Assembly (NCBI GenBank): GCA_012520175.1
Contig: JAAYOU010000039.1
Location: forward strand, 9,013 to 73,012
Direction of reading: 5' to 3'
From: Bacteroidales bacterium
GTDB taxonomy: Bacteria; Bacteroidota; Bacteroidia; Bacteroidales; DTU049
Length of the DNA: 64,000 nt
Shown here: in pieces, positions 2,945 through 43,200 of the stretch
Numbering within the stretch: position 1 is the stretch's first letter
Layout of the letters: each line of letters starts with the position of its first letter
Notes under the pieces: generated by a model
Databases searched by the model: none
What the model was told of the DNA's origin: nothing
The model's input: the letters and a program-made list of their open reading frames with translations, nothing else
Position numbers and translations under genes: made by a program

Positions 2945-3273
2945 ATCGCAGTTTGAAAGCGACTGTCGCCACGTAACTATCTATGTATCAACAACTTAGG
3001 AGGAACCGCCACACAAAACTATTGCCGCTGTAAACACCTGAGTATCAAGGACTTAGGCGGGCGGACACAAAAAGCTACTTCTGCCACGTAACTACCTGAT
3101 TATCAATGAGTTACGCCACCATTTCGACGCGACTCAATGAGCGGCAACCATGCAACCACCTGATTATCAGCAACTTACACAAACAAAGCGAGCGAACAGC
3201 GAGCCACAACTAAAAACTCAACACTAAGCACTAAAAACCACCTCGCAACTCCCTGACTATCAATAGCTTATAT
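2945..3273 (+). repeat. Modular extragenic repeat array, locus A (5 units of the 29-nt TGATTATCA palindromic element plus a terminal module)
   Basis: Units at 2972-3000, 3029-3057, 3087-3115, 3151-3179 and 3244-3272, all in the same orientation. Consensus is YRYAACYN-NN-TGATTATCA-R-NNNN-TTASR. The best copy is 3087-3115, CGTAACTACCTGATTATCAATGAGTTACG, with 7-bp outer arms CGTAACT/AGTTACG. Spacers are GC-rich (GCCGCC, GGCGG). The module CCACAACT...CACTAAAAACCA at 3204-3240 is shared with loci C and D. The last unit ends 2 nt before the stop codon of minus-strand gene 3274-6084. Related sequence (CAAGCGAG, ACTAAAAAAC, TTTGAAAG) may extend the element left to about 2850. Confidence 0.85.
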
Positions 3274-6084
3274 CTAATCCTCTACCTCACCATCATTACT
3301 AAAACAAATTACGCCATTATATGGGCAATAAAGGCAATTTTGTTTGTTTGTAGTTGCTTTAAATTGCTGCTCTTTGGAAAAAATTTCTTCTAAAATGCTA
3401 ATGCAATAGTTTGAAAATTCTGCTATTTCTTCTTTTGAAAAAACTTTAACATCATTTTCATTATCATAGATTACATCAGGCTTATAGCCATTTTTATTCA
3501 GCACAGAATAAATTCCGCCAGAAATTTTGTTCACATTATTAGAAGCCGAATACAGCCAGATATAAAATAAAACTTGAATTAAATATTGATTGTTTTTATT
3601 GAATAAATCAGCTATTTCAGAAGATTTCTTTTCTAAATTAAGGTCAAAGCGTTTATAAGTCGTTTTGAAATCCATTATATAATGAATGCCGTTCCTCACC
3701 TCAATTCTGTCTGCAATACCTTTTACTTTTACGATAGTTCCATCTTTCAAAGCAACATCAATGTCCAAACCATATTCCAAAGCCTCTAAATAAAAGTCAT
3801 TTGGAATATTTTCCGCCGATTTCTTCAAAAAAACATTCAGCGCGTCAAAAAGCAAATCCTTTACTAAAAAATTATATCCACTCTCAAAATGCGCCACTTC
3901 ATGTGTTATAAAAGCATCATTTAAGTTTTTTTCAACCGATGAAATCATTGAGTCAAAATCTTGTTTCAGCAAAACTCGCTTCAAATAAGGTTTTGAAATA
4001 TTTTCAATCGCTTCATGAAAAATATCGCCCATCGTATTGAACTGAATATCAGCATTTTTGTTTTCCCATTCCTTTATTTTATACACATTTTCCAAAAGGA
4101 ATTTATACGGGCATAAAACAAAATTAAAGAAAGCAGAAAAAGAAATCCCTTTTTGAGCCAATTCCTTCAATTTATTCTCTTTATCTTTTAAGGTAGAAAT
4201 ATTTTCAAGAGAATTTTCGCCATTGTATCCAATATCCAAGCTAATGCGATTGAAAGCGATATTTGAACTAGCCGGCAACAATTCATGCTCGATTTGAGCT
4301 ATATATCTCGAAGGTTCTTTCCCGAAAAGTGCGTCTGGCTCTGTATTGTAGATTATAACAATGTTTTCCGCACGTTGAATTAATCGCCAAAAATGATAAG
4401 CGTAAACCGAATCTCTGTCGCTTTGCAATGGCAGCTTCAATGCTCTGCGCAAATCTACAGGCAAAAACGAATCTTTATTCGCCGCAGCGGGCAAATTACC
4501 TTCATTAGCTCCGACTATAATTACATTTTTAAAATCTAAAGAACGAGTTTCGAGCATTCCTAAAATCTGAAGCCCTTTTATAGGCTCACCTTTCAAAGGA
4601 ATTTTCAACGATTGAATTTGGCGTTTTACGAAATACGAAAAAGCTAAAATATTTATATCCTTGTCTATATCATGCTTTTGAAATGTATTTATTAAAACAT
4701 TTAGCATTGTACGCATTTGCCAAGCAGCTTCATGCTCAATTTCTATTTCCACAGACCTTTCAAAAATCATGTCCATTTTAGAAATCAGCATCTCTGCAAT
4801 TGATTCCCAAGAATTATATGGAGAAAACAATCCGTTTGTAAGCTCATTAACTCGCTGTAACAAAGCGGAATCTTCTCTATTTTCGGCATTCCAATAAAAA
4901 AATCTAAATTTTCCCGAAGATATTACTTCGACACACTCTCTAAACTCGTGTATTTTGTCATCCTGAACAAGTAAATTCACTAATGGATTGGCTAACAGAG
5001 CTGAAAACGCATCGAAATGAAACACTATATCGCCTTTGCTGTGGCTTATAGCGTTAATCATTGCAAAATAATTTTTTATAAACTGCCCTGCAAAAGTATT
5101 CACCAAAGGAAAACCGCCTGAAATATTAACCTTATTGCTCCATTCGTTAGGCAAACTACTCAGCAATGGCATTAACAAAGACTCATCAGCAAGGACTAAA
5201 ACTGTATCGCTGAATTTATCAGAATAATCAGATTCTAATTTATTTAAAGCAACTTGTATCTGAGAGTAGCCCAAAGGAGCGCCAATAACCTCAATGTTTT
5301 TTTCATTATTTTTTATATGCTCCGCTGGTTCTTTAAACGTATCGGACCAAGAATAGCGATTTTGCCTCAAAAAATGTCCCGCTTCATGACTGAGATTATT
5401 CAAATACCACTTATCTGCATCCCAGACCATATCAGCTTTTCCATTTTCCAACAACAAGTCTATATGTTTTTTAAGCGAAGGAGTAATGGCGTTCAGTCCC
5501 GCAAAAATAACTTTAGAATATTCGTCAAAAGATTCTTTTTGAGACAACAACCTAGATGCAAGTCCTTGATAACCTATTTTATTTTCAATACAATTAGACG
5601 TAAACACCTCGTAAATAGGATGCAATAATTTATAAAAGCTCAAATATTTTTTCTGCAAATCAGTATTAGCCTCGCCGGGATACCAATTTTCTATTTCTCT
5701 AATTTTAAATAAATGCGTAAAAACCTCATCGGGATTGAGCAAATAATCGTCAACATCGTTAAAATCAGCTAAAATAGTCCTTCCCGTTGGTATGAACTCA
5801 TCGATTGGGAAGGCGTTGTCTTTGGAATAATTTTTATAGACATTGTAAAGCAAGGCTAGCAAAGCTGTTTCATCAATTTTGCGAATTCCGCTTTGCGAAA
5901 AAATATATTCTTCAATCGTAATAATATTTGGCAGCAAAACGGTTTTCTTAAAATAAGCAGGAAGAGTTTTTTTTAAATACAAACCGCTTCTTCTGCCCGG
6001 CAGCACGATTGCAGTGTTTTTTAAATCGTCGCCAGATGTTTCATAAATTATTTTTGCAAGTTCATCAATAAAACTCATAAGCAA
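3274..6084 (-). CDS. PD-(D/E)XK nuclease family protein, AddB/RexB-like
   Basis: 936 aa. The C-terminal nuclease block has LCPYKFLLENV, GIADRIE, YIMDFKTTY (D-x-K) and QNCLYCPYNGVIC (C-x2-C-x6-C). This is the AddB/Cas4-type arrangement of one upstream Cys plus a C-terminal Cys triad. Confidence 0.75.
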   Translation of the reverse strand: MLMSFIDELAKIIYETSGDDLKNTAIVLPGRRSGLYLKKTLPAYFKKTVLLPNIITIEEYIFSQSGIRKIDETALLALLYNVYKNYSKDNAFPIDEFIPTGRTILADFNDVDDYLLNPDEVFTHLFKIREIENWYPGEANTDLQKKYLSFYKLLHPIYEVFTSNCIENKIGYQGLASRLLSQKESFDEYSKVIFAGLNAITPSLKKHIDLLLENGKADMVWDADKWYLNNLSHEAGHFLRQNRYSWSDTFKEPAEHIKNNEKNIEVIGAPLGYSQIQVALNKLESDYSDKFSDTVLVLADESLLMPLLSSLPNEWSNKVNISGGFPLVNTFAGQFIKNYFAMINAISHSKGDIVFHFDAFSALLANPLVNLLVQDDKIHEFRECVEVISSGKFRFFYWNAENREDSALLQRVNELTNGLFSPYNSWESIAEMLISKMDMIFERSVEIEIEHEAAWQMRTMLNVLINTFQKHDIDKDINILAFSYFVKRQIQSLKIPLKGEPIKGLQILGMLETRSLDFKNVIIVGANEGNLPAAANKDSFLPVDLRRALKLPLQSDRDSVYAYHFWRLIQRAENIVIIYNTEPDALFGKEPSRYIAQIEHELLPASSNIAFNRISLDIGYNGENSLENISTLKDKENKLKELAQKGISFSAFFNFVLCPYKFLLENVYKIKEWENKNADIQFNTMGDIFHEAIENISKPYLKRVLLKQDFDSMISSVEKNLNDAFITHEVAHFESGYNFLVKDLLFDALNVFLKKSAENIPNDFYLEALEYGLDIDVALKDGTIVKVKGIADRIEVRNGIHYIMDFKTTYKRFDLNLEKKSSEIADLFNKNNQYLIQVLFYIWLYSASNNVNKISGGIYSVLNKNGYKPDVIYDNENDVKVFSKEEIAEFSNYCISILEEIFSKEQQFKATTNKQNCLYCPYNGVICFSNDGEVED

Positions 6085-6815
6085 AATTCCTTATAATATT
6101 TATTTACAAAATCATCTGCTAATTTCAATGTTTCTGGCTTCCCAACATCAATGTAGTTACAAAAAACCTTATATGATTTTATTGTTTTTTTTGCAGCTAA
6201 GTCAAGAAATGCAGGAATTAAGCCAAACGCGCCATTTCTATCTATATCGCATGGCAATTTGGGGTTTACTACACAAATGCCGCAATATCCTAATTTTTCT
6301 TTGTAATCAGATTTACCTTCCACAGAAATAAATTCGCCAGAAGTCTCATTAATCCAGCCCGACAATAAGCCTGAATTGTCAAAAAACAATTTCCGAGATG
6401 ATTTGCGGTCTTTTACAACTAATAATGCATCGGGATTTGTTCGCAAAAACTCAGATTTCAAGTCAAAGAAGTCCAAATTGCTCAATATATCTACATTATG
6501 CACTAAAATAGGTTCATTTCCATCTAGCAATTTTGCAGCTTTTTTCAATCCCCCGCCGGTATCGAGCAAAAAATCCGTTTCATCTGAAATTTTAATATTT
6601 AAGCCTTCTATTTTTAAATTATTGATAAAATCTACGATTTGCTCAGCATGATGATGCACATTTATAACTATATCGCAAATAGAATAATATTTTAATTTAA
6701 TTAAAAGCCATCCCAATAAAGGTTTTCCTGCAACTGAAACCAATGCTTTTGGCTTATTGTGAGTAAGATGACCCAACCTTGTTCCTAAACCAGCAGCAAA
6801 AACAATAGCTTTCAT
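6075..6815 (-). CDS. Nucleotidyltransferase family protein (sugar-1-phosphate nucleotidylyltransferase, MurU-like)
   Basis: N-terminus MKAIVFAAGLGTRLGHLTHNKPKALV carries the GxGTRL...K nucleotide-binding signature. It overlaps the downstream AddB-like gene by 10 nt. Confidence 0.8.
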   Translation of the reverse strand: MKAIVFAAGLGTRLGHLTHNKPKALVSVAGKPLLGWLLIKLKYYSICDIVINVHHHAEQIVDFINNLKIEGLNIKISDETDFLLDTGGGLKKAAKLLDGNEPILVHNVDILSNLDFFDLKSEFLRTNPDALLVVKDRKSSRKLFFDNSGLLSGWINETSGEFISVEGKSDYKEKLGYCGICVVNPKLPCDIDRNGAFGLIPAFLDLAAKKTIKSYKVFCNYIDVGKPETLKLADDFVNKYYKEFCL

Positions 6816-6931
6816 GAGTTTTTTGTATGTTTTTTTATAAAAAAATCTAATCTATACAAATTAAAATAAAAAATACGTTTTAAAAAAATTATCTTTGCTA
6901 AAAATAAATTTTTGTTTTTCGATAATTATGG

Positions 6932-6961
6932 TTTGTAATTCAAAAAATATTTATATCTTTG
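6932..6961 (+). promoter_or_regulatory. Bacteroidota-type sigma-A promoter for rplU-rpmA (-33 TTTG, -7 TATCTTTG)
   Basis: TTTG at 6932-6935 and TATCTTTG (TAnnTTTG) at 6954-6961, 18 nt apart and about 44 nt upstream of the rplU ATG. A second TATCTTTG lies at 6890-6897. Confidence 0.5.
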
Positions 6962-7004
6962 CACTCCGTTTTAAAAAAGAATTTAGAATTAACACATAGA
7001 AACA

Positions 7005-8071: not shown

Positions 8072-8268
8072 CATAACTATTTGATTATCAATATTTTAGA
8101 CAGACGCACCCATACAAAACAGCCCGCCACCACGTAATTACTTGAGTATCAGTGGTTTAGACATGACGGGTGCCGCCTCGTAACTATCTGATTATCAACA
8201 ACTTACGCGGAGCCGTCGCCAACACGAAGCCCGCCACCACGTAACTAATTGATTATCAGTATATTACT
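8072..8268 (+). repeat. Modular extragenic repeat array, locus B (4 units)
   Basis: Units at 8072-8100, 8133-8161, 8179-8207 and 8240-8268 in the same orientation, with GC-rich spacers. B2-B4 with their spacers (8133-8268) align by eye with C2-C4 (10296-10430). The array ends 21 nt beyond the stop of minus-strand gene 8289-9005. Confidence 0.85.
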
Positions 8269-8288: not shown

Positions 8289-9005
8289 TTAGTGAGTTAT
8301 TTTATAGTTTAATTTTTTCCTCATTTTACGAATCTCTTTTTTAGACAAAAAACTTCTTTTTACAAAATCTTGATACAGGTATGGTTGTTCAAAATAGTCG
8401 TAATCAGCTCCTTTTGCATAAATTGGATTATTTATTCTATATGTTACAAAATAATTTGATATATCAAAACACATGAAGATATTTTCATATAACTTCGCTT
8501 TATTTTTATCTTGAATTTGAAATTGAATAGTTTTTAAGCCTAAAGTATCTTTAAAATTTATTGGCAAATTTGTTGCGAAAATAATTTCCCAGTCTTGAAA
8601 ATTGTAAATGAAGTATTTCTTAAAATTAGAATAGCCATAAATATTTTTACTAGATTTTTTAACAATTTCAAATAAAAATGAATACCATTCTTCAAAATCT
8701 AAATTTTCAAACCTTGAAAAATCGTATTTTTCATATACACTATCTTCTATAAGATTAGTAGGAACAGCTATTATAACAAACACGACATAATTATTTTTTT
8801 CATTTTTATTAAAATCTCTATTTAAATATTTTAAATAATATTGGAAAGCTATTTTTATTTTAAAATCAATGTCCTTTAGTTCAATAGCATTTATAGTTAC
8901 TGAATCTGTTGTTTCATCTACCTTGTTGACAAAAAATTGCCCATATATCGGTGTGCATAAAACACTTAATATAATTAAAAATAAAATTTTGCTTGCATTA
9001 ATCAC
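8289..9005 (-). CDS. Hypothetical secreted protein (paralogue of the N-terminal part of 8998-10110)
   Basis: N-terminal signal-like segment ILFLIILSVLCTPIYGQ. The block YSFLFEIVKKSSKNIYGYSNFKKYFIYNFQDWEIIFATNLPINF parallels FSLFYDVIIETLHKSKRSFFSDYKYYYNHNDIDVLISSKAPINF in the upstream gene. Very AT-rich by eye. Confidence 0.6.
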   Translation of the reverse strand: MINASKILFLIILSVLCTPIYGQFFVNKVDETTDSVTINAIELKDIDFKIKIAFQYYLKYLNRDFNKNEKNNYVVFVIIAVPTNLIEDSVYEKYDFSRFENLDFEEWYSFLFEIVKKSSKNIYGYSNFKKYFIYNFQDWEIIFATNLPINFKDTLGLKTIQFQIQDKNKAKLYENIFMCFDISNYFVTYRINNPIYAKGADYDYFEQPYLYQDFVKRSFLSKKEIRKMRKKLNYKITH

Positions 9006-10110
9006 GATTTCCCTCTCCTTCTATTTTATAATCTGTGTCCGGATAAATTATCTCAATTTCTGTTAAATAAACCTCTATAATTGCTGTTGTATTTTTTTTA
9101 ACTTTAATACCTTGACATGTATATGCGCTATATCCTATACTTTTAATTGTAACATTATAAACACTAGGATTCAACTCTAAAGAAAATTCACCATCATGAT
9201 TTGACATAGCATGATTTATTAATGTTCGATCACTATATTTTTTTACTTTTACTAAAGCAAAACGAACAGGTTCTTTAGTTTCCAAATCATATAATTTACC
9301 AATTATAGCAGAAGTGTCTGAATCAATATATTTAACTTTAAAGAAACTTCCTTCTTTTTCAATAACCTTATATCCATAATAATCTAATTCTGTTGATTTC
9401 GTAATTTCAACAGTCTTATAAAAATTATCACAATAAGATGTATCTGCAGGATTGTAAAAATGCAAAGCTTGATAAGATTCATCTTGATTAAACTGGTAAT
9501 ATGTAGCATTAGGAAAATAAGATGTAATAGTATCATTGTATTTTTCCATATCCCCTAGTTTCAACTTAGCCAAGTTTTTTTTTAAATAAAAATTAATTGG
9601 TGCTTTAGAACTAATTAACACGTCAATATCATTATGATTATAATAATATTTATAATCTGAAAAAAAAGATCGCTTTGATTTGTGAAGTGTTTCAATAATT
9701 ACATCATAAAAAAGAGAAAAATCTTGTTCTCTTGAAAAAATTGTATCCTTGTATAAAGAATCTATATAAGATTCTAAGAAATCAGACTCATGGCTTAATG
9801 AGCTTATAGCCCAATTAGGATGTATTTCAATAGAAATAAACATATCACTATTCATATGCAAGCTTCTTTTATTGCATACATTTATATGATTTATTAGCAT
9901 TTCTGATAAAATAGGGGTTAGAGTATCAATTTCACTAACATTGTATAAAACGTAATTTTTATATACATCTACATTGTAATTTTCATAATCGTAATTTTCA
10001 TAATCAATGTATCTCTTTTGTTTTTGGCTAAATAGTGTAGTTGGAATTACAAGTATAGCAATCAAAAAATATAATATTGCCTTATTTTTATCTTTTAACT
10101 TTATAATCAT
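8998..10110 (-). CDS. Hypothetical secreted protein with a C-terminal carboxypeptidase-regulatory-like (CarboxypepD_reg) beta-sandwich
   Basis: Signal/TM segment AILYFLIAILVIPTTLFSQ. The C-terminus IGKLYDLETKEPVRFALVKVK...SNHDGEFSLELNPSVYNVTIKSIGYSAYT fits the CarboxypepD_reg pattern. It overlaps the downstream gene by 8 nt. Confidence 0.6.
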   Translation of the reverse strand: MIIKLKDKNKAILYFLIAILVIPTTLFSQKQKRYIDYENYDYENYNVDVYKNYVLYNVSEIDTLTPILSEMLINHINVCNKRSLHMNSDMFISIEIHPNWAISSLSHESDFLESYIDSLYKDTIFSREQDFSLFYDVIIETLHKSKRSFFSDYKYYYNHNDIDVLISSKAPINFYLKKNLAKLKLGDMEKYNDTITSYFPNATYYQFNQDESYQALHFYNPADTSYCDNFYKTVEITKSTELDYYGYKVIEKEGSFFKVKYIDSDTSAIIGKLYDLETKEPVRFALVKVKKYSDRTLINHAMSNHDGEFSLELNPSVYNVTIKSIGYSAYTCQGIKVKKNTTAIIEVYLTEIEIIYPDTDYKIEGEGNRD

Positions 10111-10251: not shown

Positions 10252-10551
10252 CACAACTCTTGATTATAAACGTTTTACGCGAAGCAGCCGTGTCGCACAA
10301 CTAGTTGATTATCAGCGGTTTAGACAGGGCGGGCGCCGCCTCATAACTACTTGATTATCAGCAAGTTACACAGAGTCGCCGCCAATGCGAAGCCGCCACT
10401 TCACAACCCATTGATTATCAGCACTTTACGCAAGCAAGCGAGCTAATAGCGAGCCCCAACTATGTCTTATCCTGAAATAGGTTGACACTAAAAAACTAAA
10501 AACTAAACACTAAAAACTATTTCCCAACCACCTGATTATCAACAAGTTACA
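10252..10551 (+). repeat. Modular extragenic repeat array, locus C (5 units, terminal module and ACTAAAA heptamer tract)
   Basis: Units at 10252-10279, 10296-10324, 10342-10370, 10402-10430 and 10523-10551. The module GAGCCCCAACT...CACTAAAAACT lies at 10454-10518. It includes tandem ACTAAAAA/ACTAAAA/ACTAAAC/ACTAAAA at 10487-10519. The array lies 39 nt beyond the trxB stop and upstream of gene 8998-10110. Confidence 0.85.
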
Positions 10552-10589: not shown

Positions 10590-11540
10590 TTAAATATCTC
10601 TTGTTGCGATAAAACGCTCTGCATCAATAGCAGCCATGCAACCTGAGCCAGCAGCAGTAATAGCTTGTTTGTAATTAATATCTCTAACATCGCCAGCAGC
10701 AAAAACGCCTTTAACGCTAGTGCATGTGGAGTCTGGCAAAGTTTTTATATAGCCATTTTCGAACATTTCTAATTGTCCTTTAAAAATTTCAGTATTAGGA
10801 GTATGACCAATAGCTACAAAAACGCCATCAAGCTCAATTTTAAGTTCTTCGTTAGTTTTTACGTTTTTCACAACAATAGCTGTAACATTTTTAGCAAAAC
10901 CTTTTTTTTCGCCTAGAATTTCAACAGGAATTGAGTTCCAAACAGGCTCAATATTAGGAGTATTAAAAACTTTTTGCTGCATCGCTTTTGAAGCTCTAAG
11001 CTCATCGCGTCTATGAATTAGATAAACTTTTTTTGCTAAATTTGATAAATACACAGCTTCTTCAGCAGCGGTATCGCCACCACCAATTACACAAACAACT
11101 TTTCCTTTATAGAAAAATCCATCACAAGTAGCACAAGCCGAAACACCAAATCCGTTGTATTCTTTTTCGCTAGGCAAGCCCAACCATCTAGCTGAAGCGC
11201 CAGTAGCAATAATTACAGTTTCAGCCAATATATTTTGACCTCTATCGTCAGTAAGGCTAAAAGGGTATTTTGAAAAATCAACTTTTTCTATAAGTCCTGA
11301 TCTTATTTCTGTCCCAAACCTCAGTGCTTGTTTTTTTAAATCTTCCATCATTTCTACGCCTGTAACGCCATCTGGATATCCCGGAAAATTTTCAACATCA
11401 GTAGTAATAGTCAATTGCCCTCCAGGCTGCAAGCCTTCGTATAAAACAGGTTTTAATTCAGCTCTTGAAGAATAAATTGCTGCTGTGTATCCTGCGGGTC
11501 CAGAGCCAATAATCACACATTTTCTTTTTTCAATTTCCAT
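10590..11540 (-). CDS. trxB: Thioredoxin-disulfide reductase
   Basis: GSGPAGYTAA FAD motif, redox-active CATCDG, GGGDTAAEEA NADPH motif, 316 aa. Confidence 0.95.
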   Translation of the reverse strand: MEIEKRKCVIIGSGPAGYTAAIYSSRAELKPVLYEGLQPGGQLTITTDVENFPGYPDGVTGVEMMEDLKKQALRFGTEIRSGLIEKVDFSKYPFSLTDDRGQNILAETVIIATGASARWLGLPSEKEYNGFGVSACATCDGFFYKGKVVCVIGGGDTAAEEAVYLSNLAKKVYLIHRRDELRASKAMQQKVFNTPNIEPVWNSIPVEILGEKKGFAKNVTAIVVKNVKTNEELKIELDGVFVAIGHTPNTEIFKGQLEMFENGYIKTLPDSTCTSVKGVFAAGDVRDINYKQAITAAGSGCMAAIDAERFIATRDI

Positions 11541-29663: not shown

Positions 29664-30590
29664 TTAATTATTTGATAATGAGCTTGTTACCTCTGATATA
29701 AAAATATCATTCATTGAGGGTAAAATTTCTTCAAATCCAGTTACATTCCCAATATCCATAAGTTTTTTCAATAAATCATTAGAAGAAAACTCTTCTTTTA
29801 TTTTTATTCGGCAAATTATAGAATCATCAATGCTTTCAATATCACTAACAAAGCCTATTTCGCTCAACATCTTATCATTAAAATCACTGAAAGGCTGAAG
29901 CTTTAGTTGAAACAAATTATTATTGTATCTTTTTTTAATATCCCTAACAGCTCCTTCAAGAATCACTTTAGAGCGATTAATCAGAGCAATATCGTCGCAT
30001 AACTCTTCAACAGAAGCCATATTATGAGTAGAAATAATTACAGTTGCACCGCTATTCTTCATGTTTAGGATTTCTTCTTTAAGCATTTCTGCATTAATTG
30101 GGTCAAACCCACTAAAAGGCTCATCAAATATTAGCAAAGAAGGCTCATGAATAACAGTTACAATAAACTGTACCTTTTGTTGCATACCTTTAGAAAGCTC
30201 TTCCACTCTTTTATTCCACCAATTTTGGATTTCAAATTTTTCAAACCAATGTTTAAGTTTTTTATAAGCAAGATGTTTATCCATTCCTTTAAGCTGAGCC
30301 AAATATAAAGCTTGCTCTCCAACTTTCATTTTTTTATACAAACCTCTTTCTTCTGGCAAATAACCTATGTTTTCAACATGATTTTTTTCCAACTTAGCAC
30401 CATTTAAAAAAATCTCTCCACTATCAGGACCAATAATTTGATTAATAATTCTAATCAACGTGGTTTTTCCAGCACCATTAGGACCCAACAAACCAAATAT
30501 ACTCTTTTCTTTAACCTTTAAAGAGACTTCGTTTAAAGCACAATGATTTGCAAATTTTTTGGAAACATTTCTTACTTCTAAATTTATCAT
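29664..30590 (-). CDS. ABC transporter ATP-binding protein
   Basis: Walker A GPNGAGKTT, signature LSKGMQQK, Walker B LLIFDEP. Confidence 0.92.
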   Translation of the reverse strand: MINLEVRNVSKKFANHCALNEVSLKVKEKSIFGLLGPNGAGKTTLIRIINQIIGPDSGEIFLNGAKLEKNHVENIGYLPEERGLYKKMKVGEQALYLAQLKGMDKHLAYKKLKHWFEKFEIQNWWNKRVEELSKGMQQKVQFIVTVIHEPSLLIFDEPFSGFDPINAEMLKEEILNMKNSGATVIISTHNMASVEELCDDIALINRSKVILEGAVRDIKKRYNNNLFQLKLQPFSDFNDKMLSEIGFVSDIESIDDSIICRIKIKEEFSSNDLLKKLMDIGNVTGFEEILPSMNDIFISEVTSSLSNN

Positions 30591-32428: not shown

Positions 32429-33508
32429 TCAGTCAGAAAATTTACTTATGTCTATGCCAAGAGTATTTGTAATTTCTAATAATTCATCCCAAACTTGAGG
32501 CTTAATATTAATTCCGTCTTTTTTATTTTTAATAGTATTGGCTATTTCAATTTCTCCCGGAATAATTACCCTATCATGACCTTTTACAGTTTTAGAATTT
32601 CTAAAAGTTCTTATCCATAAATCTAAATATTCTTTAACTTCATTTGCAGGTCTGAAACCGTCTAGACGAATTGCGCCAAAGAAATGTCCCAATCCTTTAC
32701 CTGGAGCACCTGGTTTTGGCTCTAAATAAGCAACCTGAGGTGGAACAAAAGGTCCGAAATTAGCTCCTGACAATACTGCTGACAAAATATCAACCATTGC
32801 TCCCAAGCAAAAACCTTTACTACTTGATTGACCACCCAAAGGTATAATAGTTCCACCTCTTCTTAAAACAGATGGATCATCAGTTTCATTTCCTTCTGCG
32901 TCTTGGATAAGTCCAAGAGGAGCTTTTTTACCTTCTTTTTCCAACAATTCAATCTTACCACGAGGAACTGAAGTTGTAGCTAAATCCGCTGTAAAAGTTG
33001 GTTCATCTTTACCAGGAATAGAGAATGCAATTGGATTTGTGCCTAACATTCGTTCTACACCAAAAGTAGGAGCTACTAAAGCATTTGCATTGGTAAATGC
33101 TAAACCAATCATATCTTGCTTACTAGCCATCAAAGTATAAAGACCAGCAATTCCAAAATGATTTGAATTTCGCACAGCAACAAAACCTGAACCAAATGAG
33201 TTTGCTTTTTCTATAGCCAAATTCATTGCATAATTTCCTACAACCACACCCAAACCATTATCACCATCAACAGTTGCAGTAGAAGGCATTTCATGTACAA
33301 TTTTTATATTCGGACTTAAATTCATCCTGCCTTTTTGCCATAAACCAAGATAATCCTTTATCCGCACAACACCATGACTTGAAATACCTCTTAATTCAGC
33401 AGCAACCAACATTTCGGCTACAGTTTTTGCATCTTCTGCCGAGCAACCTGCTTTTGAAAAAATATTTTCAACTAACGAAAATAATTGTGTTTCTGTAAAT
33501 AATTTCAT
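32429..33508 (-). CDS. Ldh_2 family oxidoreductase (malate/L-lactate/sulfolactate dehydrogenase family 2)
   Basis: GISSHGVVR, SNHFGIAG and GTNPIAFSIP motifs typical of the Ldh_2 family, 359 aa. Confidence 0.8.
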   Translation of the reverse strand: MKLFTETQLFSLVENIFSKAGCSAEDAKTVAEMLVAAELRGISSHGVVRIKDYLGLWQKGRMNLSPNIKIVHEMPSTATVDGDNGLGVVVGNYAMNLAIEKANSFGSGFVAVRNSNHFGIAGLYTLMASKQDMIGLAFTNANALVAPTFGVERMLGTNPIAFSIPGKDEPTFTADLATTSVPRGKIELLEKEGKKAPLGLIQDAEGNETDDPSVLRRGGTIIPLGGQSSSKGFCLGAMVDILSAVLSGANFGPFVPPQVAYLEPKPGAPGKGLGHFFGAIRLDGFRPANEVKEYLDLWIRTFRNSKTVKGHDRVIIPGEIEIANTIKNKKDGINIKPQVWDELLEITNTLGIDISKFSD

Positions 33509-33648: not shown

Positions 33649-36600
33649 ATGAAGAAATTAATTTTAGTATTGATAGTTTTAGCATTGCAAACAAGCATAA
33701 TTGCTCAAGATTTCAAATACAGCAAACAAAAAGCTATTTTGCTTGAAAACAAAGGGCAGCTAAGCAATACAGATGGCTCTTCTGCTGACAATGTGCTTTA
33801 TTACATGATAACTCCAAACATGAATTTTTACATAACAAATTCTGGAGTTACCTACGTTTTTAAAGGACATTTCTTTAAAGAGGATTCATCATCTGTAAAT
33901 TCAATTAATTTATTAAAAGATAAAGAGCAGATTACAAAATGGCATCGTGTTGATGTTGATTTAGTAGATGCAAAAATTGAAAAATCTTCTATAAATCAAA
34001 AAAATCTAAATACTGAACATGTTGTTAATTACTACAACCATTTAATGCCCGATGGAGTTGGAGATTTAATACCTTTGGAAAATGTTACATTAAAAGATGT
34101 TTATCCGGGAATAGACTGGGAATTTGTGGTTAATGATGAACATTTAGAATATAATTTTATTTTGAATAAAAAAGCTGATATATCTAAAATAAAGCTGCAT
34201 TACAAAGGACAAGACAAAATTAGTTTGGAAAATAATAGTGTAAAAATTGAAACAAAATATGGTTCTTTAATTGAAAAAGAAATTGTTTCTTTTACTTCAA
34301 AAGGAAGAAACGCTACAATAAACGCAGTGTTAAAAGACAATGAATTAAGCTATAATCCTGTTTCTGTACCAAAAATACTTGATGATGAAACATTAATTAT
34401 TGACCCACCCTTAATTTGGTCAACTTTTTATGGAGGTTCTGGAAGCGAAAATAATGTAAAAATGACTATGATTAAAAATTCTGGTGATATTTTCGTTGCA
34501 TTAACAACAAGTTCTAGCAATTTTCCTTTACTTTACCCAGGAGGCTCATCATATTATGACAATACTTATCATGGTAACAATGATATAGCTCTTTTTAATT
34601 TTAATAAAAATGGCGCTTTAAAATGGAGTACTTATTATGGAGGTTCTAGTGGAGATTCTGCTTTTAACCTATGTAATAATGGTCTTATTGTTTTTGTAGT
34701 AGGTAGAACTCGTTCAGCTGACTTCCCTACTATGGCACCTCCATCAGGTGGATATCTTGACCCTACATTAGGTGGATACAAAGATGGATTTATTATTGCT
34801 TTTAATGCTCTTACACGTCAAAGATATTGGGCTACATATTTTGGTGGATCTTTTCCTGATATAGTAGAAGGTTATACTGAAGAAAATACCACAGCTTGCG
34901 CGTGCAAAGGAATTAATCTATATATTACAGGAACTGCTTCTTCAAATGATTTTCCTATTGTAACTTTTCCTGGTGCAGACACTAAAACAACTATGAACGA
35001 TGGTGCATATCCAAACCCAGCTTCTGGTAGATATTTTACAGATGCTTATCTAAGCCTATTTACTATTGCAGGTGCTATGGGAACCGAAATACAACTAGTA
35101 TGGAGTACCTTTGTTGGTGGTAAAAACAGAGATATTGATCCTGAAATTTTATTAGATAACGCAAACAATATAACATTGGCATATACTACCACTGATGGCG
35201 GAGATATAACTCAAATAAATACATTAAGCCCTCCAGGTTTTGTTGGAACATATAATAATGGTATTGATATTGCTTTTACTAGATTTGACTCTAACAAAAA
35301 ACTTGTATGGCAAACATATATAGGCAGCACAGGTGCTCAAACTTATGCTCAAGCCATGGTAAATAATAGCAGTAATGAATTCTTTGTTGCTGGATCAGCT
35401 AGAGGAACTATAACAACAAGAAATGATATTGGAGCAAGCTATTATTACAATACCAAAAAAGGTAGTGTCAGTGATGCTTTTTTATTAAAATTTAATTCTA
35501 ATTGCCAACTAGTATATGGTTCTTATTGGGGAGGAAAAACTAACCAAAACTATTCTAGAGGATTATGTTTAGATAAAAATAACAATTTATTACTTGTAGG
35601 TCAAACTCTAGGTGCTACAGGCAATGATGGCTTAATTTACAAACCATATCCTGGCTCTTATGTTGATAGCACTTATAACGGCAGCAATGATGGAGTAATT
35701 TTAAAGCTATCTCCTACATTAAGCCCAATATGGGGTACTTATTTTGGAGGAAGTGGAGGTGAGGTTATTTATGATATAGAAGCAAATAATGACGATGAAA
35801 TATTCATTTTAGGAAGAAAAGAGGATGCTAATGCCACAGGCTTTCCAATTGTAAACTTACCAGGTGCGTATAACGACTCTCCCCCCTCAAGCAGTGATGC
35901 TTTTTTGGCAAAATTTATCCCCTGCCCTACAAATTTCGGCTCTATATCATCAGGAACAGACTCTGTTTGCTATGGACAAAAAGGTACAATTAGTGCAGAT
36001 GGAGGTAATGCATATTTATGGAGTACTGGAGAAACAACAAGTTCTATAACACCTACTATTGTATCTGATTCAACATTTATTGTTACATCAATAAACACAT
36101 TAGGTTGTGAAGATAAAGACACTTTTAATATTAAAGTAAAACCTCTCCCTGTTTTGAGTTTTACAGGCACAACCACTGTATGCTTAGAAGATACAGTTAA
36201 ATTGACTGTTAGCGGTGGAACATCTTACCTATGGGAAACAGGACAAACTACACCAAATATTTCTTTTGTGCCAACAATAAGCGATTATATTTCTGTTACC
36301 GCAACAAATAATTTTGGATGTTCAAAAAAAGATAGTGTTGCCTATACTGTTCATCCGCTCCCAACACCAAGCATTTCAGGTGCAAGTGAAATCTGCTCAA
36401 AAGACACATTAACACTAACAGCATCAGGTGGAGATACATATTTGTGGTCTAATGGAGTAATCACAGCTATAAATAACATTGTTTTAGATACATCTGGCAA
36501 TATTAATTATTATGTAATTGCAACAAACACACATAATTGCAAAGATACAGCCTTTCATACCTTTACAGTTAATCCATTACCTGTAATAGATTTAGGTAAC

Positions 36601-38373
36601 GACACTTCTATTTGCGATGGCACTAGCATTATTCTTGATGCTGAAAACCCTGGCTCTACATATGCATGGAATACAACCGAAACAACACAAACAATTTCAA
36701 TTAATACTACTGGAGAATATTCTGTAACAGTAACTGACGTTAACTCCTGCAAAAGCAAAGACACAATGAATCTTGTTGTGCTACCTAATGCCGATGCAAC
36801 AATTACAGATGTGCCTGCAATTTGTATAGACGGAACTCCATTCACATATATTGTAGCTGAAGCAGGCGGAACTTGGACAGGAACAGGAATTTCTCCTACT
36901 GGAAACTTCGACCCAAGTATTGGTACCGGTAATTATGAATTTATTTACACTATTGCAGGACAATGCGGCGATGCTGACACAACGAATATTACTGTTAATC
37001 CTCTGCCTATTGTAGATTTAGGCAACGATACTACTATTTGTGATGGCACTAGCATTATTCTCGATGCTGAAAACCCTGGCTCTACATATGCATGGAATAC
37101 AACCGAAACAACACAAACAATTTCAATTAATACTGCTGGAGAATATTCTGTAACAGTAACTGACGTCAACTCTTGTACGAACAAAGACACAATGAATCTT
37201 GCTGTGCTACCTAATGCCGATGCAACAATTACAGATGTACCTTTTATCTGTATAGACGGAACTCCATTCTCATATATTGTAGCTGAAGCAGGCGGAACTT
37301 GGTCAGGAACAGGAATTTCCCTTACAGGTGATTTCGACCCAAGTATTGGTGTTGGCGATTATGAATTTATTTATACTATTGCTGGAAAATGTGGCGATGT
37401 TGATACAACGAATATTACAGTCAATCCTTTGCCTGTAATAAATTTAGGCAATGACACATCTATTTGTGATGGCACTAGCATTATTCTCGATGCTGAAAAC
37501 CCTGGTTCTACATATGCATGGAATACAACCGAAACAACACAAACAATTTCAATTAATACTGCTGGAGAATATTCTGTAACAGTAACTGACGTCAACTCTT
37601 GTACGAACAAAGACACAATTACTATTGCTGTGTTGCCTAGCGCTGATGCTACTATTACAACAGATGTACCTTTTATATGTATGGACGGTGCTCCTTTTAC
37701 CTATATCGTAGCTGAAACTGGTGGAACTTGGGCAGGAACCGGTATTTCTACAACCGGAGATTTTGATCCAAGCATTGGTGCTGGAACTTATAATTTCACT
37801 TACACTATTGCTGGAAAATGTGGCGACACCGATGCTACAAGCATTACTGTTGGAGAGTTACCTATCATAAACTTTATCGCTACTAATGAAACTTGTGAAG
37901 ATAAAAGTGATGGATCATTATTGCTAAATATTACAGGTGGAACTTTACCCTACCAGTATTTTCTTGATTCTATACCTATTTCTGAATCAACAAATAATTT
38001 GATGCCGGGTAATTATCTACTTACTGTTATAGACAATAATAATTGTTCCCAAAGCGATAGTGTATTTATTTTAGCAGGGGATTTTCCTTGCGATGAAAAT
38101 GTTAGATTCTTTATCCCCAATATTTTTAGCCCCAACAACGATAATAACAATGATGTGTTATATGTGAAAAGCGAATTTATTAAAAATTTAGAATTTATGA
38201 TTTATGATAGATTTGGGAATGTCGTTTTTGAATCTAAAGATATTAATATAGGCTGGGACGGAAAATATAAAGGAGAACCTGCTGAAGAAGGTGTATATTT
38301 CTGGGAAATTAAAGCCATTATGATAGACAATACAGAATTAAATAAAATCGGCAATACAACCCTAGTCCGTTAA
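33649..38373 (+). CDS. Large T9SS-secreted adhesin-like protein (SBBP beta-propeller repeats, Ig-like repeat modules, type-B gliding-motility C-terminal sorting domain)
   Basis: Signal peptide, then repeated W(S/A)TY(Y/F)GG... propeller motifs. Cys-containing ~70-aa and ~142-aa tandem modules follow. The C-terminus FIPNIFSPNNDNNNDVLYV...GWDGKYKGEPAEEGVYFWEIKA fits the TIGR04131-type CTD. Confidence 0.9.
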   Translation: MKKLILVLIVLALQTSIIAQDFKYSKQKAILLENKGQLSNTDGSSADNVLYYMITPNMNFYITNSGVTYVFKGHFFKEDSSSVNSINLLKDKEQITKWHRVDVDLVDAKIEKSSINQKNLNTEHVVNYYNHLMPDGVGDLIPLENVTLKDVYPGIDWEFVVNDEHLEYNFILNKKADISKIKLHYKGQDKISLENNSVKIETKYGSLIEKEIVSFTSKGRNATINAVLKDNELSYNPVSVPKILDDETLIIDPPLIWSTFYGGSGSENNVKMTMIKNSGDIFVALTTSSSNFPLLYPGGSSYYDNTYHGNNDIALFNFNKNGALKWSTYYGGSSGDSAFNLCNNGLIVFVVGRTRSADFPTMAPPSGGYLDPTLGGYKDGFIIAFNALTRQRYWATYFGGSFPDIVEGYTEENTTACACKGINLYITGTASSNDFPIVTFPGADTKTTMNDGAYPNPASGRYFTDAYLSLFTIAGAMGTEIQLVWSTFVGGKNRDIDPEILLDNANNITLAYTTTDGGDITQINTLSPPGFVGTYNNGIDIAFTRFDSNKKLVWQTYIGSTGAQTYAQAMVNNSSNEFFVAGSARGTITTRNDIGASYYYNTKKGSVSDAFLLKFNSNCQLVYGSYWGGKTNQNYSRGLCLDKNNNLLLVGQTLGATGNDGLIYKPYPGSYVDSTYNGSNDGVILKLSPTLSPIWGTYFGGSGGEVIYDIEANNDDEIFILGRKEDANATGFPIVNLPGAYNDSPPSSSDAFLAKFIPCPTNFGSISSGTDSVCYGQKGTISADGGNAYLWSTGETTSSITPTIVSDSTFIVTSINTLGCEDKDTFNIKVKPLPVLSFTGTTTVCLEDTVKLTVSGGTSYLWETGQTTPNISFVPTISDYISVTATNNFGCSKKDSVAYTVHPLPTPSISGASEICSKDTLTLTASGGDTYLWSNGVITAINNIVLDTSGNINYYVIATNTHNCKDTAFHTFTVNPLPVIDLGNDTSICDGTSIILDAENPGSTYAWNTTETTQTISINTTGEYSVTVTDVNSCKSKDTMNLVVLPNADATITDVPAICIDGTPFTYIVAEAGGTWTGTGISPTGNFDPSIGTGNYEFIYTIAGQCGDADTTNITVNPLPIVDLGNDTTICDGTSIILDAENPGSTYAWNTTETTQTISINTAGEYSVTVTDVNSCTNKDTMNLAVLPNADATITDVPFICIDGTPFSYIVAEAGGTWSGTGISLTGDFDPSIGVGDYEFIYTIAGKCGDVDTTNITVNPLPVINLGNDTSICDGTSIILDAENPGSTYAWNTTETTQTISINTAGEYSVTVTDVNSCTNKDTITIAVLPSADATITTDVPFICMDGAPFTYIVAETGGTWAGTGISTTGDFDPSIGAGTYNFTYTIAGKCGDTDATSITVGELPIINFIATNETCEDKSDGSLLLNITGGTLPYQYFLDSIPISESTNNLMPGNYLLTVIDNNNCSQSDSVFILAGDFPCDENVRFFIPNIFSPNNDNNNDVLYVKSEFIKNLEFMIYDRFGNVVFESKDINIGWDGKYKGEPAEEGVYFWEIKAIMIDNTELNKIGNTTLVR
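36571..37851 (+). repeat. Three in-frame tandem repeats (426, 426, 429 nt) inside the adhesin gene
   Basis: Repeat starts at 36571, 36997 and 37423. Each encodes NPLP(V/I)(I/V)(D/N)LGNDT.ICDGTSIILDAENPGSTYAWNTTETTQTISINT.GEYSVTVTDVNSC...ITV. The 159-nt cores 37035-37193 and 37461-37619 differ at one position by eye. Confidence 0.95.
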
Positions 38374-38470: not shown

Positions 38471-38475
38471 CTTTA

Positions 38476-39099: not shown

Positions 39100-39102
39100 G
39101 CT

Positions 39103-41013: not shown

Positions 41014-41052
41014 TATTTTAAAATCAACAACTTCATTTAGAAAAGAAACACT

Positions 41053-42519
41053 ATGGATTATAAAGTAATATTAATAATATTTTTAGCATATACTTTATTA
41101 CTTTTTTTCATCACGTGGCTAACAAGCAGAAGAGCAAATAATGAAAGTTATTTTATCGGAAACCGCAAATCTCCATGGTTTGTTGTTGCTTATGGCATGA
41201 TAGGCGCCTCCTTGTCTGGCGTAACCTACATGTCAGTGCCAGGGATGGTGGAACAACACAGCTTTTCATATTTTATGGTTGTGCTTGGATTTTTTGTAGG
41301 ATATCAAATTATCGCATTTGTGCTACTTCCTCTTTATTACAGGCTAAATCTGACCTCAATATACACTTATCTAGACAAACGATTTGGCAACACATCTTAC
41401 AAAACGGGCTCATTGCTGTTTATTATTTCCCGCCTTTTAGGAGCATCTATGAGAATGTTTTTGGTTGTTTTAATTTTACAAAACTTTCTTTTTAATGATA
41501 TTGGAATTCCTTTTGCTGTAACAGCCACAATTTTTATTTTATTAGTTTTAATCTATACTTTCCAAGGTGGCATTAAAACAATTATTTGGACAGACACCTT
41601 ACAAACAACTTTCATGCTTGGAGCTTTAGTATATACACTATTTGCCATAGCATCACAACTTGATTTAAGCATAGGCGGTCTTTTTTCAACTATTGCAGAT
41701 AGCGAATACAGCACCATTATAAATTGCGATTATAATTCCAAAGACCATTGGCTAAAGCAATTTTTAAGCGGAATTTTCATAACTGTTACAATGACTGGAC
41801 TTGACCAAGAAATGATGCAAAAAAACTTGAGCTGCAAAAACATTCGAGACGCACAAAAAAACATGGTATCTTTTAGCTTTATAGTAGTTGGAGTTACACT
41901 TTTATTCTTAGCCTTAGGTGCAGCCCTTTATATCTATACAGACACCATGAATATTCAGCGTCCTGCCCTTGCAGATGACTTGTTTGCAACTGTTAGCTTC
42001 AAGTATTTGCCACCTTTAGCTGGATTTGTTTTCTTTATAGGACTCATCTCTGCGGCGTATCCTAGCGCTGACGGAGCCGTTACCTCACTAACCACAGCGT
42101 TTTCAATTGATATTCTTAAAATTGAAAAATATAAAAGCGAAAAGTTAAAAAAGCGAATTAGACTAATTGTGCATTTTTCATTTGCAGCAGTATTACTTGG
42201 ATTAATCATCTTTTTTAATTTTATAAACGACAGGAGTATTATTGATAAATTATTCACAATTGCAGGATACACCTACGGTCCATTACTTGGACTATATGCT
42301 TTCGGGCTTTATACCAAAAGAAAGATAAAAGATAGTTTAGTTTTTATCCCTGTGATAATAGCTCCAATATTTTGCTACATACTTGCAAACAACAGCAAAA
42401 GCTGGTTTAATGGCTATCAGATTGGCTTTGAGTTGATAATAATTAATGGATTAATTACTATTATAGGTCTATTGCTACTCTCAACAAAAGAAAAATTGGA
42501 TTTTAAGGAAGTGAAATAA
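41053..42519 (+). CDS. Sodium:solute symporter family transporter
   Basis: About 13 predicted TM helices. The N-terminal region ESYFIGNRKSPWFVVAYGMIGASLSGVTYMSVPG is typical of the SSF family. Confidence 0.8.
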   Translation: MDYKVILIIFLAYTLLLFFITWLTSRRANNESYFIGNRKSPWFVVAYGMIGASLSGVTYMSVPGMVEQHSFSYFMVVLGFFVGYQIIAFVLLPLYYRLNLTSIYTYLDKRFGNTSYKTGSLLFIISRLLGASMRMFLVVLILQNFLFNDIGIPFAVTATIFILLVLIYTFQGGIKTIIWTDTLQTTFMLGALVYTLFAIASQLDLSIGGLFSTIADSEYSTIINCDYNSKDHWLKQFLSGIFITVTMTGLDQEMMQKNLSCKNIRDAQKNMVSFSFIVVGVTLLFLALGAALYIYTDTMNIQRPALADDLFATVSFKYLPPLAGFVFFIGLISAAYPSADGAVTSLTTAFSIDILKIEKYKSEKLKKRIRLIVHFSFAAVLLGLIIFFNFINDRSIIDKLFTIAGYTYGPLLGLYAFGLYTKRKIKDSLVFIPVIIAPIFCYILANNSKSWFNGYQIGFELIIINGLITIIGLLLLSTKEKLDFKEVK

Positions 42520-43200
42520 GGCTATGTCCTGAAAAGCATGTTATATTTTATTTCGCTTGTTGTGTTTTCGGTCGTTTCATATGGTTATGGTAACGTAAAG
42601 TGCTGATAATCAAGCAGTTACGTGGCTATGACTGCGGCGGCGTAAAGTGCTGATAATCACATAGTTACGTTTGCCCGCCTGCTTGGTGTCCGCACCAGCC
42701 TAAGTCGTTGATAATCAGAGAGTTGCAAGCCGCCGCCGCTTTGCCTGTCTTGCTTTGCTTGCCCGCGACCACCTAAATTGCTGATAATCAACAAGTTGTG
42801 TGTACTAGCTGATTTAAATTGGCTTTTCTGCAAAATTTTTTGTAAATTTTAAACTACAAAAAATTTTGCAGAAAAAATTAGCGGATAAGTTTTTTTGTGT
42901 ACCCTGTTTCGCTCGAGCCTGCGTAAACCACTGGTAATCAAGCAGTTACAAGTCGCCGACCCGTCCACCCACCTAAATCATTGACAATCAGGTAGTTACA
43001 CAACGCCGCCACAACTCAACACTAAAAACCATTTTGATTTCGGACTTTCCGCCATTGCAAGTCATTGATTATCATACAGTTACAGAGCAGCTGCGACTTT
43101 CAAACTTTACAAACCCTTCAACAAGTTCAGGGCATCGCTTTACAAACTAAGACCCAGCAAGTCCTTAATAAAAAAGCACTTACAAATCAATCCGTATTTT
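42520..43200. repeat. Modular extragenic repeat array, locus D (7 units in mixed orientation, terminal module, inserted hairpin and decayed half-units)
   Basis: Six units read TGATAATCA on the + strand at 42594-42622, 42641-42669, 42699-42727, 42772-42800, 42922-42950 and 42972-43000. One unit is in the opposite orientation at 43056-43084, preceded by the module CCACAACTCAACACTAAAAACC (43009-43030). The left edge CTATGTCCTGAAAAGC (42522-42537) resembles locus C 10460-10480. Positions 43085-43200 hold degenerate half-units. The array starts right after the stop of the symporter gene. Confidence 0.85.
42824..42875. repeat. Perfect 21-bp inverted repeat (52-bp hairpin/miniature element) inside array D
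   Basis: TTTTCTGCAAAATTTTTTGTA (42824-42844) and TACAAAAAATTTTGCAGAAAA (42855-42875) are exact reverse complements around the 10-nt loop AATTTTAAAC. Abutting flanks are AATTGGC (42817-42823) and AATTAGC (42876-42882). Confidence 0.9.

Follow-up and report, generated by a model that had tools for sequence, protein, structure and literature searches.

A stretch of 64,000 nucleotides from contig JAAYOU010000039.1 of an uncultured Bacteroidales bacterium (referred to hereafter as the window) holds four intergenic arrays, A to D, composed of copies of a single palindrome of 25–29 bp, YAA-N4-YTGAT-W-ATCAR-N4-TTR, which we call the unit. As a motif, the unit occurs across Bacteroidota and in their phages, almost always in intergenic positions, and outward from its central base each half reads W-ATCA-R-N4-TT-R, the E. 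coli consensus for integration host factor (IHF; WATCAANNNNTTR), all nine specified positions of WATCAR-N4-TTR being matched. Judging from these sequence features, we tentatively propose that the unit may be a high-affinity site for a homodimeric protein of the HU/IHF family, carried by BIME- or Correia-like repeats; we hold this reading with some reserve. The identity of the half-site with the IHF consensus is an addition to an earlier sequence-only reading of the same DNA, which had been concerned with the arrays themselves.

The 9-nt core of the unit, TGATTATCA, occurs in exact form 14 times in the window where 1.28 occurrences would be expected (0 of 100 shuffles reach 14), and all 14 fall inside the four arrays. 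A flanked pattern, AAC-N4-TGATTATCA-N5-TTA with up to three mismatches, is matched 55 times over the two strands (8.5 expected) and recovers 21 of 21 units (five in array A, four in B, five in C and seven in D), the cores of seven units carrying mismatches. Unit centres lie at 2986, 3043, 3101, 3165 and 3258 in array A, at 8086, 8147, 8193 and 8254 in array B, at 10265, 10310, 10356, 10416 and 10537 in array C, and at 42608, 42655, 42713, 42786, 42936, 42986 and 43070 in array D; centre-to-centre distances are thus 45–73 nt, with wider gaps of 84, 93, 121 and 150 nt. All four arrays are intergenic and stand out by a G+C (GC) content of 42–50% (window, 32%); the units themselves range from 12 to 40%, and the spacers are mostly at 56–81%, with four longer ones at 32–46%. 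The ends of the window arrays are without terminal inverted repeats (TIRs). These figures bear out the sequence-only reading, which had counted 21 units in four intergenic loci, with the core exact in 14 copies, unit starts 44–73 nt apart, larger gaps of 84–150 nt and the arrays forming GC-rich islands; every unit was recovered where it had been placed. The parts of the arrays are as follows.

2945..3273, + strand: array A, with head, five units with GC-rich spacers, and tail before the last unit; lies between convergent genes 1335-2834 (+) and 3274-6084 (-)
2945..2973, + strand: head module of array A, CAGTTTGAAAGCGACTGTCGCCAC; homologous to the heads of array D and of both arrays on metagenome contig L172
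2974..2998, + strand: unit A1, degenerate core TATGTATCA, three mismatches
3031..3055, + strand: unit A2, core TGAGTATCA
3089..3113, + strand: unit A3, exact core; near-perfect palindrome cgTAACTACCTGATTATCAATGAGTTAcg
3153..3177, + strand: unit A4, exact core
3204..3239, + strand: tail module of array A, CCACAACT...CACTAAAAACC
3246..3270, + strand: unit A5, core TGACTATCA
8072..8268, + strand: array B, four units, between the 3′ ends of rpmA (L27) and a 238-aa open reading frame (ORF)
8074..8098, + strand: unit B1, exact core
8135..8159, + strand: unit B2, core TGAGTATCA
8181..8205, + strand: unit B3, exact core
8242..8266, + strand: unit B4, exact core
10252..10551, + strand: array C, five units and a tail module; downstream of trxB (10590-11540, -) and upstream of a 370-aa gene
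10253..10277, + strand: unit C1, core TGATTATAA
10298..10322, + strand: unit C2, exact core
10344..10368, + strand: unit C3, exact core
10404..10428, + strand: unit C4, exact core
10454..10518, + strand: tail module of array C, CCCCAACT...CACTAAAAACT, with internal expansion
10525..10549, + strand: unit C5, exact core
42590..43120, - strand: array D, seven units, read from the head at its right end; between an SSF transporter gene and a TPR histidine-kinase gene; an AT-rich inverted repeat divides it into parts D1 (four units) and D2 (three units)
42596..42620, - strand: unit D1, exact core
42643..42667, - strand: unit D2, exact core
42701..42725, - strand: unit D3, exact core
42726..42773, no strand: GC-rich spacer, swapped in strain variant L002 for a shorter, different module
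42774..42798, - strand: unit D4, exact core
42824..42875, no strand: perfect 21-bp inverted repeat, AT-rich, with a 10-nt loop; either an inserted element or a bidirectional terminator
42924..42948, - strand: unit D5, core TGATTACCA
42974..42998, - strand: unit D6, core TGATTGTCA
43009..43030, + strand: tail-type module of array D, CCACAACTCAACACTAAAAACC; inverted relative to the head, in comparison with array A
43058..43082, + strand: unit D7, exact core on the + strand
43083..43116, - strand: head module of array D, reverse complement GTAAAGTTTGAAAGTCGCAGCTGCTCTG

Beyond the window, units were collected by three scans: a genome scan over one genome per GTDB species, which looked for two units 20–50 nt apart (at least 120 stretches), a metagenome scan in which only the left flank was fixed (at least 120 matches), and a viral scan with the full palindrome as query (at least 120 matches). 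Taken over 632 distinct units, the consensus reads T A A c T n n Y TGATTATCA R n n A n T T A, with weight at T, A and A (positions −12 to −10 from the centre), Y (−5), the core, R (+5) and T, T and A (+10 to +12). Among the matches listed, to which all statements on spread in this paragraph refer, 119 of 120 genome stretches belong to Bacteroidota, in five orders (Cytophagales, Chitinophagales, Sphingobacteriales, Flavobacteriales and Bacteroidales), and many viral contigs carry the unit as well. Carriers include Microscillaceae, Bernardetiaceae, Flammeovirgaceae, Runella and others in Cytophagales; Saprospiraceae, Aureispira and others in Chitinophagales; Pedobacter, Mucilaginibacter and Pelobium; Capnocytophaga; and, within Bacteroidales, Alistipes, Rikenellaceae, Alloprevotella and rumen Bacteroidales of up to 65% GC. 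The unit lies outside ORFs in 603 of 684 cores from genome loci that are themselves ~76% ORF, and in 122 of 124 cores from viral loci, with no preference among convergent, divergent and tandem gene pairs in the genome loci. Its density varies widely, from 0.22 exact cores per kb in the window and 1.2 per kb in one Microscillaceae metagenome-assembled genome (MAG; 438 kb sampled) to zero in ~20 kb of relatives. The unit is thus not a repeat private to this genome, being found across the phylum, in its phages and inside unrelated miniature inverted-repeat transposable elements (MITEs).

Across the 632 units, mirrored variable positions (six to nine from the centre) pair only as often as independent columns predict, with mutual information of at most 0.06. 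Direct pair counting over 150 units from all sources gives 63.4% of cells paired where column shuffles give 61.4%, the inner variable pairs being paired in only ~40% of sequences. Single units fold at 0 to −7.1 kcal/mol, into structures that differ between units, and the fold z-scores of the arrays are −0.7 to −2.0. This combination of absent covariation and weak folding points to a constraint on double-stranded sequence, as for a protein dimer, rather than on a hairpin, and the unit behaves as a putative double-stranded protein-binding site. A REP-like hairpin was rejected on the same two counts. A search of Rfam returned no matches in the window at gathering score and only chance-level ones in E-value mode, and structured RNA or riboswitch-like arrays were set aside on this result together with the modest array z-scores. 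CRISPR arrays were likewise discarded: the units are degenerate, the spacers are homologous between arrays, no cas genes were found in the window, and the sole Rfam CRISPR match scores 15 bits against a threshold of 39.

Since the search patterns themselves impose part of the palindromy, it was checked in two ways. In the metagenome set, for which only the left arm was specified, the right side still shows R at +5 in 93% of units and T, T and A at +10 to +12 at frequencies of 0.50, 0.45 and 0.44. An unbiased count over the 438-kb Microscillaceae sample gives 1372 occurrences of the half-site WATCAR-N4-TTR, where shuffles give 77; TGAT precedes 67% of these half-sites, and 80% of cores have both arms.

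The correspondence with IHF sites extends to the geometry of the unit. At its centre the WATCAR element is read as T(0), A, T, C, A and R(+5), with R at 98% (the core being fixed by the search), and the TTR element at +10 to +12 as T.88, T.91 and A/G.90 (.50,.45 and.56 where unconstrained); the YT step at −5/−4 and the AR step at +4/+5 are 9 bp apart. In known IHF sites WATCAA starts near the site centre with TTR four bp further, and two prolines of the protein intercalate at AA steps 9 bp apart (PMC1874591). The H′ site of lambda attP, read from NC_001416 as cat-TGCTTATCA-A-tttg-TTG, has the same arrangement of steps, and the 9 bp that separate the kinks, TGCTTATCA for H′ and TGATTATCA for the unit, are identical at eight of nine positions. 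The unit resembles lambda H′ and the E. coli consensus in WATCAR-N4-TTR and in TT and AA steps 9 bp apart, but H′ is asymmetric, has an A-tract in its other half and is bound by a heterodimer, whereas the unit mirrors the consensus around one base. The A-tract present in the 5′ half of some IHF sites is absent from the unit, whose 5′ half is the mirrored consensus. The unit thus amounts to a pair of IHF consensus sites, one on each strand, with the central W in common, as would be expected for a homodimeric protein of the HU/IHF family. Bacteroidetes encode one to three classical HU/IHF genes per genome, including that of the CTnDOT host factor BHFa, alongside large HU-HIG expansions (PMC5499826; PMC6606824), and the P. 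gingivalis HU protein PG0121 to some extent prefers one particular inverted repeat to non-specific DNA (PMC3969353).

We consider the company that the unit keeps to be informative on the nature of its partner. In the Microscillaceae MAG Prado074 (loci L010-L122, e.g., L017 at ~1480-1620), a first MITE of ~125–168 nt is present in at least 51 copies in 438 kb, bounded by 16-bp TIRs (CAATACTTCGGACAGT) and a 5–7-bp AT-rich target-site duplication (TSD); it holds two units 46 nt apart, one starting ~5–6 nt inside the left TIR and the second some tens of nt inside the right TIR. A second MITE of ~200 nt, unrelated to the first, is found in the Cytophagales MAG Co_metawrap_2097 (L041, L058, L086, L093, L095 and L109), with the TIR GTAACTGTTTAGGT, an 8-bp TSD and three unit-like palindromes inside. 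That the same site is internal cargo of two unrelated transposable families argues for a host factor rather than for one transposase. Sites for IHF adjoin the ends of IS1, IS10 and gamma-delta. They are also known in Correia elements and in BIMEs (BIME-1; PMC3184786). A stable hairpin flanked by two units, with 63 or 65 nt from one unit to the other, is present in Saprospiraceae, rumen Bacteroidales and others, and its stem sequence varies by lineage with compensatory changes; in these unit–hairpin–unit modules only the inner unit arms are kept, each amounting to one WATCAR-N4-TTR with its TTR end facing the hairpin.

A mechanism consistent with these arrangements would have a homodimeric classical HU/IHF-family (DNABII) protein of the BHFa type bind and bend the symmetric unit. 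Different selfish repeats (the two Cytophagales MITE families, the unit–hairpin–unit modules of several orders and the window arrays) would each have picked the site up; in mobile elements it might help to assemble the transposition complex, and in arrays serial sharp bends could produce a local architectural or insulating structure between genes.

Several further settings of the unit were observed in the course of this survey. In L023, six tandemly expanded units lie between TIR-like matches 895 nt apart, possibly within one copy of the first MITE; a parent insertion sequence for this MITE was sought and rejected, since what lies between longer TIR pairs is host genes or expanded arrays and no transposase. 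Five tandem paralogous lipoprotein genes (L102 at 1500-6400; also L015, L033 and L085), whose ~365-aa products give a weak DUF5128 β-propeller match, have a unit–hairpin–unit module between each, with the centre of the proximal unit 5–17 nt upstream of the next start. A dispersed family in L226, L160, L166 and seven other metagenome loci places the unit within a GC stem, GA(C/T)CCC-CATAACTnnnTGATTATCAnnn-GGG(G/A)TC. In Capnocytophaga gingivalis ATCC 33624 (L055, 1-2000), tandem repeats of 65-nt period with one unit each lie on both sides of a Schlafen/AlbA_2–HATPase_c_4 gene. Among phages, L256, L260, L272, L275, L286 and six other IMG/VR loci have a unit ~5 nt past the stop of a conserved Mom-like gene, and several contigs have units 15–25 nt from a TTTGG box resembling the Bacteroidetes −33 promoter element. 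A fixed upstream promoter element was rejected, there being no constant distance to TTTG or to TTTG-N17-23-TAnnTTTG across all sets, as was an association with attP and integrases in phages, where the recurrent neighbors are the Mom-like protein, an AAA_5 ATPase and proteins of unknown function. To our knowledge, the unit is unlike the dif/Xer consensus.

Returning to the window, the four arrays can be aligned with one another over both units and spacers. Within this alignment the spacer 8208-8239 matches 10371-10401, and 3058-3086 matches the reverse complement of 42670-42698; the head modules of arrays A and D are homologous (AGTTTGAAAG..CG.C.G...C.GTAAC), and the tail module CCACAACT...CACTAAAAACC is common to A (3204-3239), C (10454-10518) and D (43009-43030). 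The four loci are diverged copies of one polar, modular element consisting of a head, a variable number of units each with a GC-rich spacer, and a tail. Compared with array A, the tail of array D is turned round with respect to its head, an indication that stretches between palindromic units can undergo inversion or shuffling. The spacers also hold small GGCGG-N2/3-CCGCC palindromes (GGCGGGCGCCGCC and GGCGGAACCGCC; window 10328-10340 and contig L172), which may be a candidate second protein-binding motif.

The element is also dynamic and lineage-specific. Strain variant L002, which comes from a different fermenter sample, is nearly identical apart from array D, where it is without exactly 47 nt (one unit and spacer, spanning units D1/D2) and has a shorter, different spacer module between two other units. 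The arrays change through recombination between their units: the deletion is flanked by two neighboring units with 19 identical nt, an identity that suffices for slippage or homologous recombination to have caused it, so that site-specific recombination, also considered, is unneeded. Syntenic contigs of the closest relatives (TrxB 77% identical, 18–21 kb) hold zero units, and the arrays were therefore gained in this lineage. One of ~360 fetched loci, the related metagenome contig L172 (34% GC), has two further arrays beside unrelated genes, with the same head and with spacers 72–80% similar, indicating that the element family is dispersed beyond the four window loci. Metagenome contigs of the same organism (L370, L371 and L373-L375) end ~100–170 nt after trxB, inside array C, an assembly break typical of dispersed repeats. 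Neither Rfam nor full-text literature searched by sequence yields a name for the element. The structural claims of the sequence-only reading stand up well here: the named spacer homologies and the module shared by A, C and D are visible in the four-array alignment; the view of the loci as diverged copies of a composite element of variable unit number is upheld by that alignment and by the L002 variant; a family dispersed beyond four sites is seen in the L172 arrays and in the contig breaks at array C; and, as it had reported, no named family is recognized (in Rfam and the literature searched) and there is no RAYT, transposase or recombinase gene among the 48 main ORFs of the window.

The same reading had likened the arrays to pneumococcal BOX and to REP/BIME elements, a comparison that holds for architecture and fails for a REP-like hairpin, given the absence of covariation and the weak folding. 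The BIME-1/RIP–RIB elements of E. coli are, like the arrays, intergenic mosaics that alternate two short motifs, one of them an IHF-consensus site, with a variable number of modules, a frequent position at gene 3′ ends and no adjoining transposase gene. They differ in that here the IHF-like site is itself the repeated, conserved part, is symmetric, belongs to another phylum and has no RAYT link that we found, and in that the GC-rich parts are not REP hairpins (weak folds, no GTAG/CGTC head, orientation not alternating). REP head types are GTAG and CGTC (PMC3733652), and neither is present in the unit consensus. BOX (boxA–boxB(n)–boxC) shares with the arrays a polar build of head, internal unit of ~45–60 nt in variable number and tail, as well as dispersal between genes; it folds stably and is thought to act via RNA structure, whereas the units and arrays do not fold in this way, and there is no sequence similarity, BOX sequences not having been compared directly. 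The Correia elements of Neisseria resemble the Cytophagales MITEs in being short, TIR- and TSD-bounded and present in many intergenic copies with internal IHF-consensus sites; they have no sequence similarity to these MITEs, each with two or three sites (of which one lies within a few nt of a TIR, on its inner side, and the rest lie deeper), and they differ from the window arrays, which are without TIRs. The REP/REPIN sequences associated with RAYT subclass 2.6 are, like the unit, short intergenic Bacteroidetes repeats in which palindrome doublets are common, but they are GC-rich, species-specific hairpins, whereas the unit is AT-rich, phylum-conserved and non-covarying.

Other explanations of the unit were weighed together with that of a homodimeric HU/IHF-family site. 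It might be the site of a different dimeric Bacteroidota protein, either an unknown nucleoid-associated protein or a global regulator, with the match to IHF a coincidence. Such a protein would suit a sequence palindrome without covariation that is intergenic and (among the genome matches listed) confined to one phylum, and would suit the phage contigs in which the unit lies just upstream of a promoter-like TTTG or directly after conserved genes; we nevertheless think it rather unlikely, since a footprint of 25–29 bp with information at ±10 to ±12 and a 9-bp inner palindrome is unsuited to an ordinary helix-turn-helix dimer, the match to WATCAR-N4-TTR is complete over nine positions and comes with the 9-bp step spacing, the distance to promoter elements is not fixed overall, and 1.2 cores per kb in one genome far exceeds a regulon. 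This last figure also tells against a particular case of regulation, that the units are Fur boxes or other metal-regulator sites. Papers containing the core sequence include Fur-box studies, and TGATAATCA is the center of the classical Fur box, the 9-nt core being equal to the center of GATAATGATAATCATTATC; however, in the latter box −5 is A and +5 is T where the unit has Y (A in 1%) and R (T in 1%), and it differs again at ±6 to ±9, while arrays of four to seven sites lie between convergent genes and the neighboring genes are not iron-related, which makes this explanation scarcely credible.

The patchiness of the unit among genomes (0 to 1.2 cores per kb), the dispersed composite copies with strain-variable unit number and spacers, and the module inverted between arrays A and D would all be compatible with a recognition or recombination site for a mobile-element enzyme (a transposase, a RAYT-like Y1 nuclease or a recombinase) that spreads the arrays, and the literature describes one RAYT subclass, 2.6, that is specific to Bacteroidetes and has “atypical” REPs (PMC6006769). 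We judge this distinctly unlikely. The two MITE families that contain units have their own unrelated TIRs and different TSD lengths, making the units cargo rather than transposase ends; none of the REPs listed for subclass 2.6 contains the core, all being GC-rich hairpins peculiar to a species; Y1 enzymes recognize folded single strands, whereas the unit shows no hairpin covariation; the 19-nt identity already accounts for the strain deletion; the window has no transposase or recombinase gene, and its array ends no TIRs; and conservation of one sequence in five orders and their phages sets the unit apart from REPs, whose evolution is coupled to that of their RAYT. A role at the level of RNA, with units acting as small RNA or single-strand hairpins (terminators, stabilizers or processing sites) in the manner of REP or BOX at 3′ ends, has the least structural support and seems to us improbable. 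In its favor, many copies lie directly after stop codons, two units flank a stable covarying hairpin in several lineages, some units fold better than shuffles (z down to −3.5), array C is at the lower end of the array scores (z = −2.0) and there is a slight excess of pairing; against it, variable stem positions pair in only ~40% of cases, unit energies of 0 to −7 kcal/mol go with predicted structures that vary between units, the apical loop would be of 1–3 nt, conservation is in sequence and not in structure, units are equally frequent between divergent and convergent genes, and no Rfam family matches.

The proposal of a homodimeric HU/IHF-family site itself has several points to answer. The link to this family is one of sequence resemblance, and the IHF of E. 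coli is heterodimeric and binds asymmetric sites, A-tract included; a symmetric IHF-type site is not documented in the literature examined. A tblastn search with E. coli HupA, IhfA and IhfB gave no match in the window or in loci L001-L126. Palindromy was partly built into the search patterns, the left-arm-only set (the unconstrained test) gave a weaker outer arm, and the pairing excess in the column-shuffle comparison, slight as it is, is consistent (0 of 500 shuffles reach the observed value). The counts and taxonomic range from the genome, metagenome and viral scans are lower bounds. The absence of units from 18–21 kb of the closest relatives indicates that the perfect consensus is not a general chromosomal requirement, and the proposal does not account for the GC-rich spacers with their GGCGG-N-CCGCC palindromes or for the head and tail modules.

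The setting of the arrays is otherwise unexceptional. The window is an ordinary stretch of Bacteroidota chromosome, of which the same DNA is contained in biogas-fermenter metagenomes; its thioredoxin reductase (the trxB product) is identical to one recorded at NCBI from a “Bacteroidales bacterium” MAG, and the nearest other relatives are only 77–78% identical. Its proteins include a type IX secretion CHU_C/SprB protein and TonB-dependent receptors with CarboxypepD_reg domains, together with RecA, DnaJ, GrpE, LigA, UvrA, SecDF and ribosomal proteins; genes for transposases, RAYT, integrases or HU/IHF proteins were not found among its 48 main ORFs, four of which have no Pfam match. Between arrays B and C (8289-10110) the window has two extra genes, for a 370-aa protein with a CarboxypepD_reg domain and a 238-aa protein with no Pfam match, in comparison with relatives L378 and L379, where trxB is directly convergent with rpmA; this segment may have been gained together with the arrays. 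A lone near-consensus unit with one mismatch (AACAAGCTCATTATCAAATAATTA) lies outside the arrays at 29665-29688, at the junction of two ABC-transporter genes. At ~33500 the coding strand switches, genes lying on the − strand from ~3 to 33.5 kb (the last at 32429-33508) and on the + strand from 33.6 kb to the window end (the first at 33649-38373), and the GC skew shifts at the same point from about −0.2 to about 0 or positive: an origin-like signature, or merely divergent operons.

Little is known about chromosome-shaping proteins in Bacteroidota, a major group of bacteria in the gut, the rumen, soil and water, and the literature that we searched defines no sequence-specific site of IHF type for the phylum. 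As the arrays break metagenome assemblies and vary between strains, they could serve in strain typing. Should the inference of an HU/IHF-family partner fail, a well-delimited new repeat family and a phylum-conserved palindrome in need of a binding partner would remain. If it is true, the motif provides a ready consensus with which to test BHFa and related HU/IHF proteins and to map architectural sites genome-wide, and it raises the question of why unrelated MITEs, phages and intergenic arrays carry the same site. A broader reading, which we think rather unlikely, is that Bacteroidota may have a sequence-specific, homodimeric HU/IHF-family (or other) architectural protein for which the 25-bp symmetric unit would be the optimal site; clusters of sites would then be elements that structure or insulate the chromosome, MITEs and phages would be exploiting the same host factor, and the whole would constitute an undescribed, phylum-wide system of protein and site.

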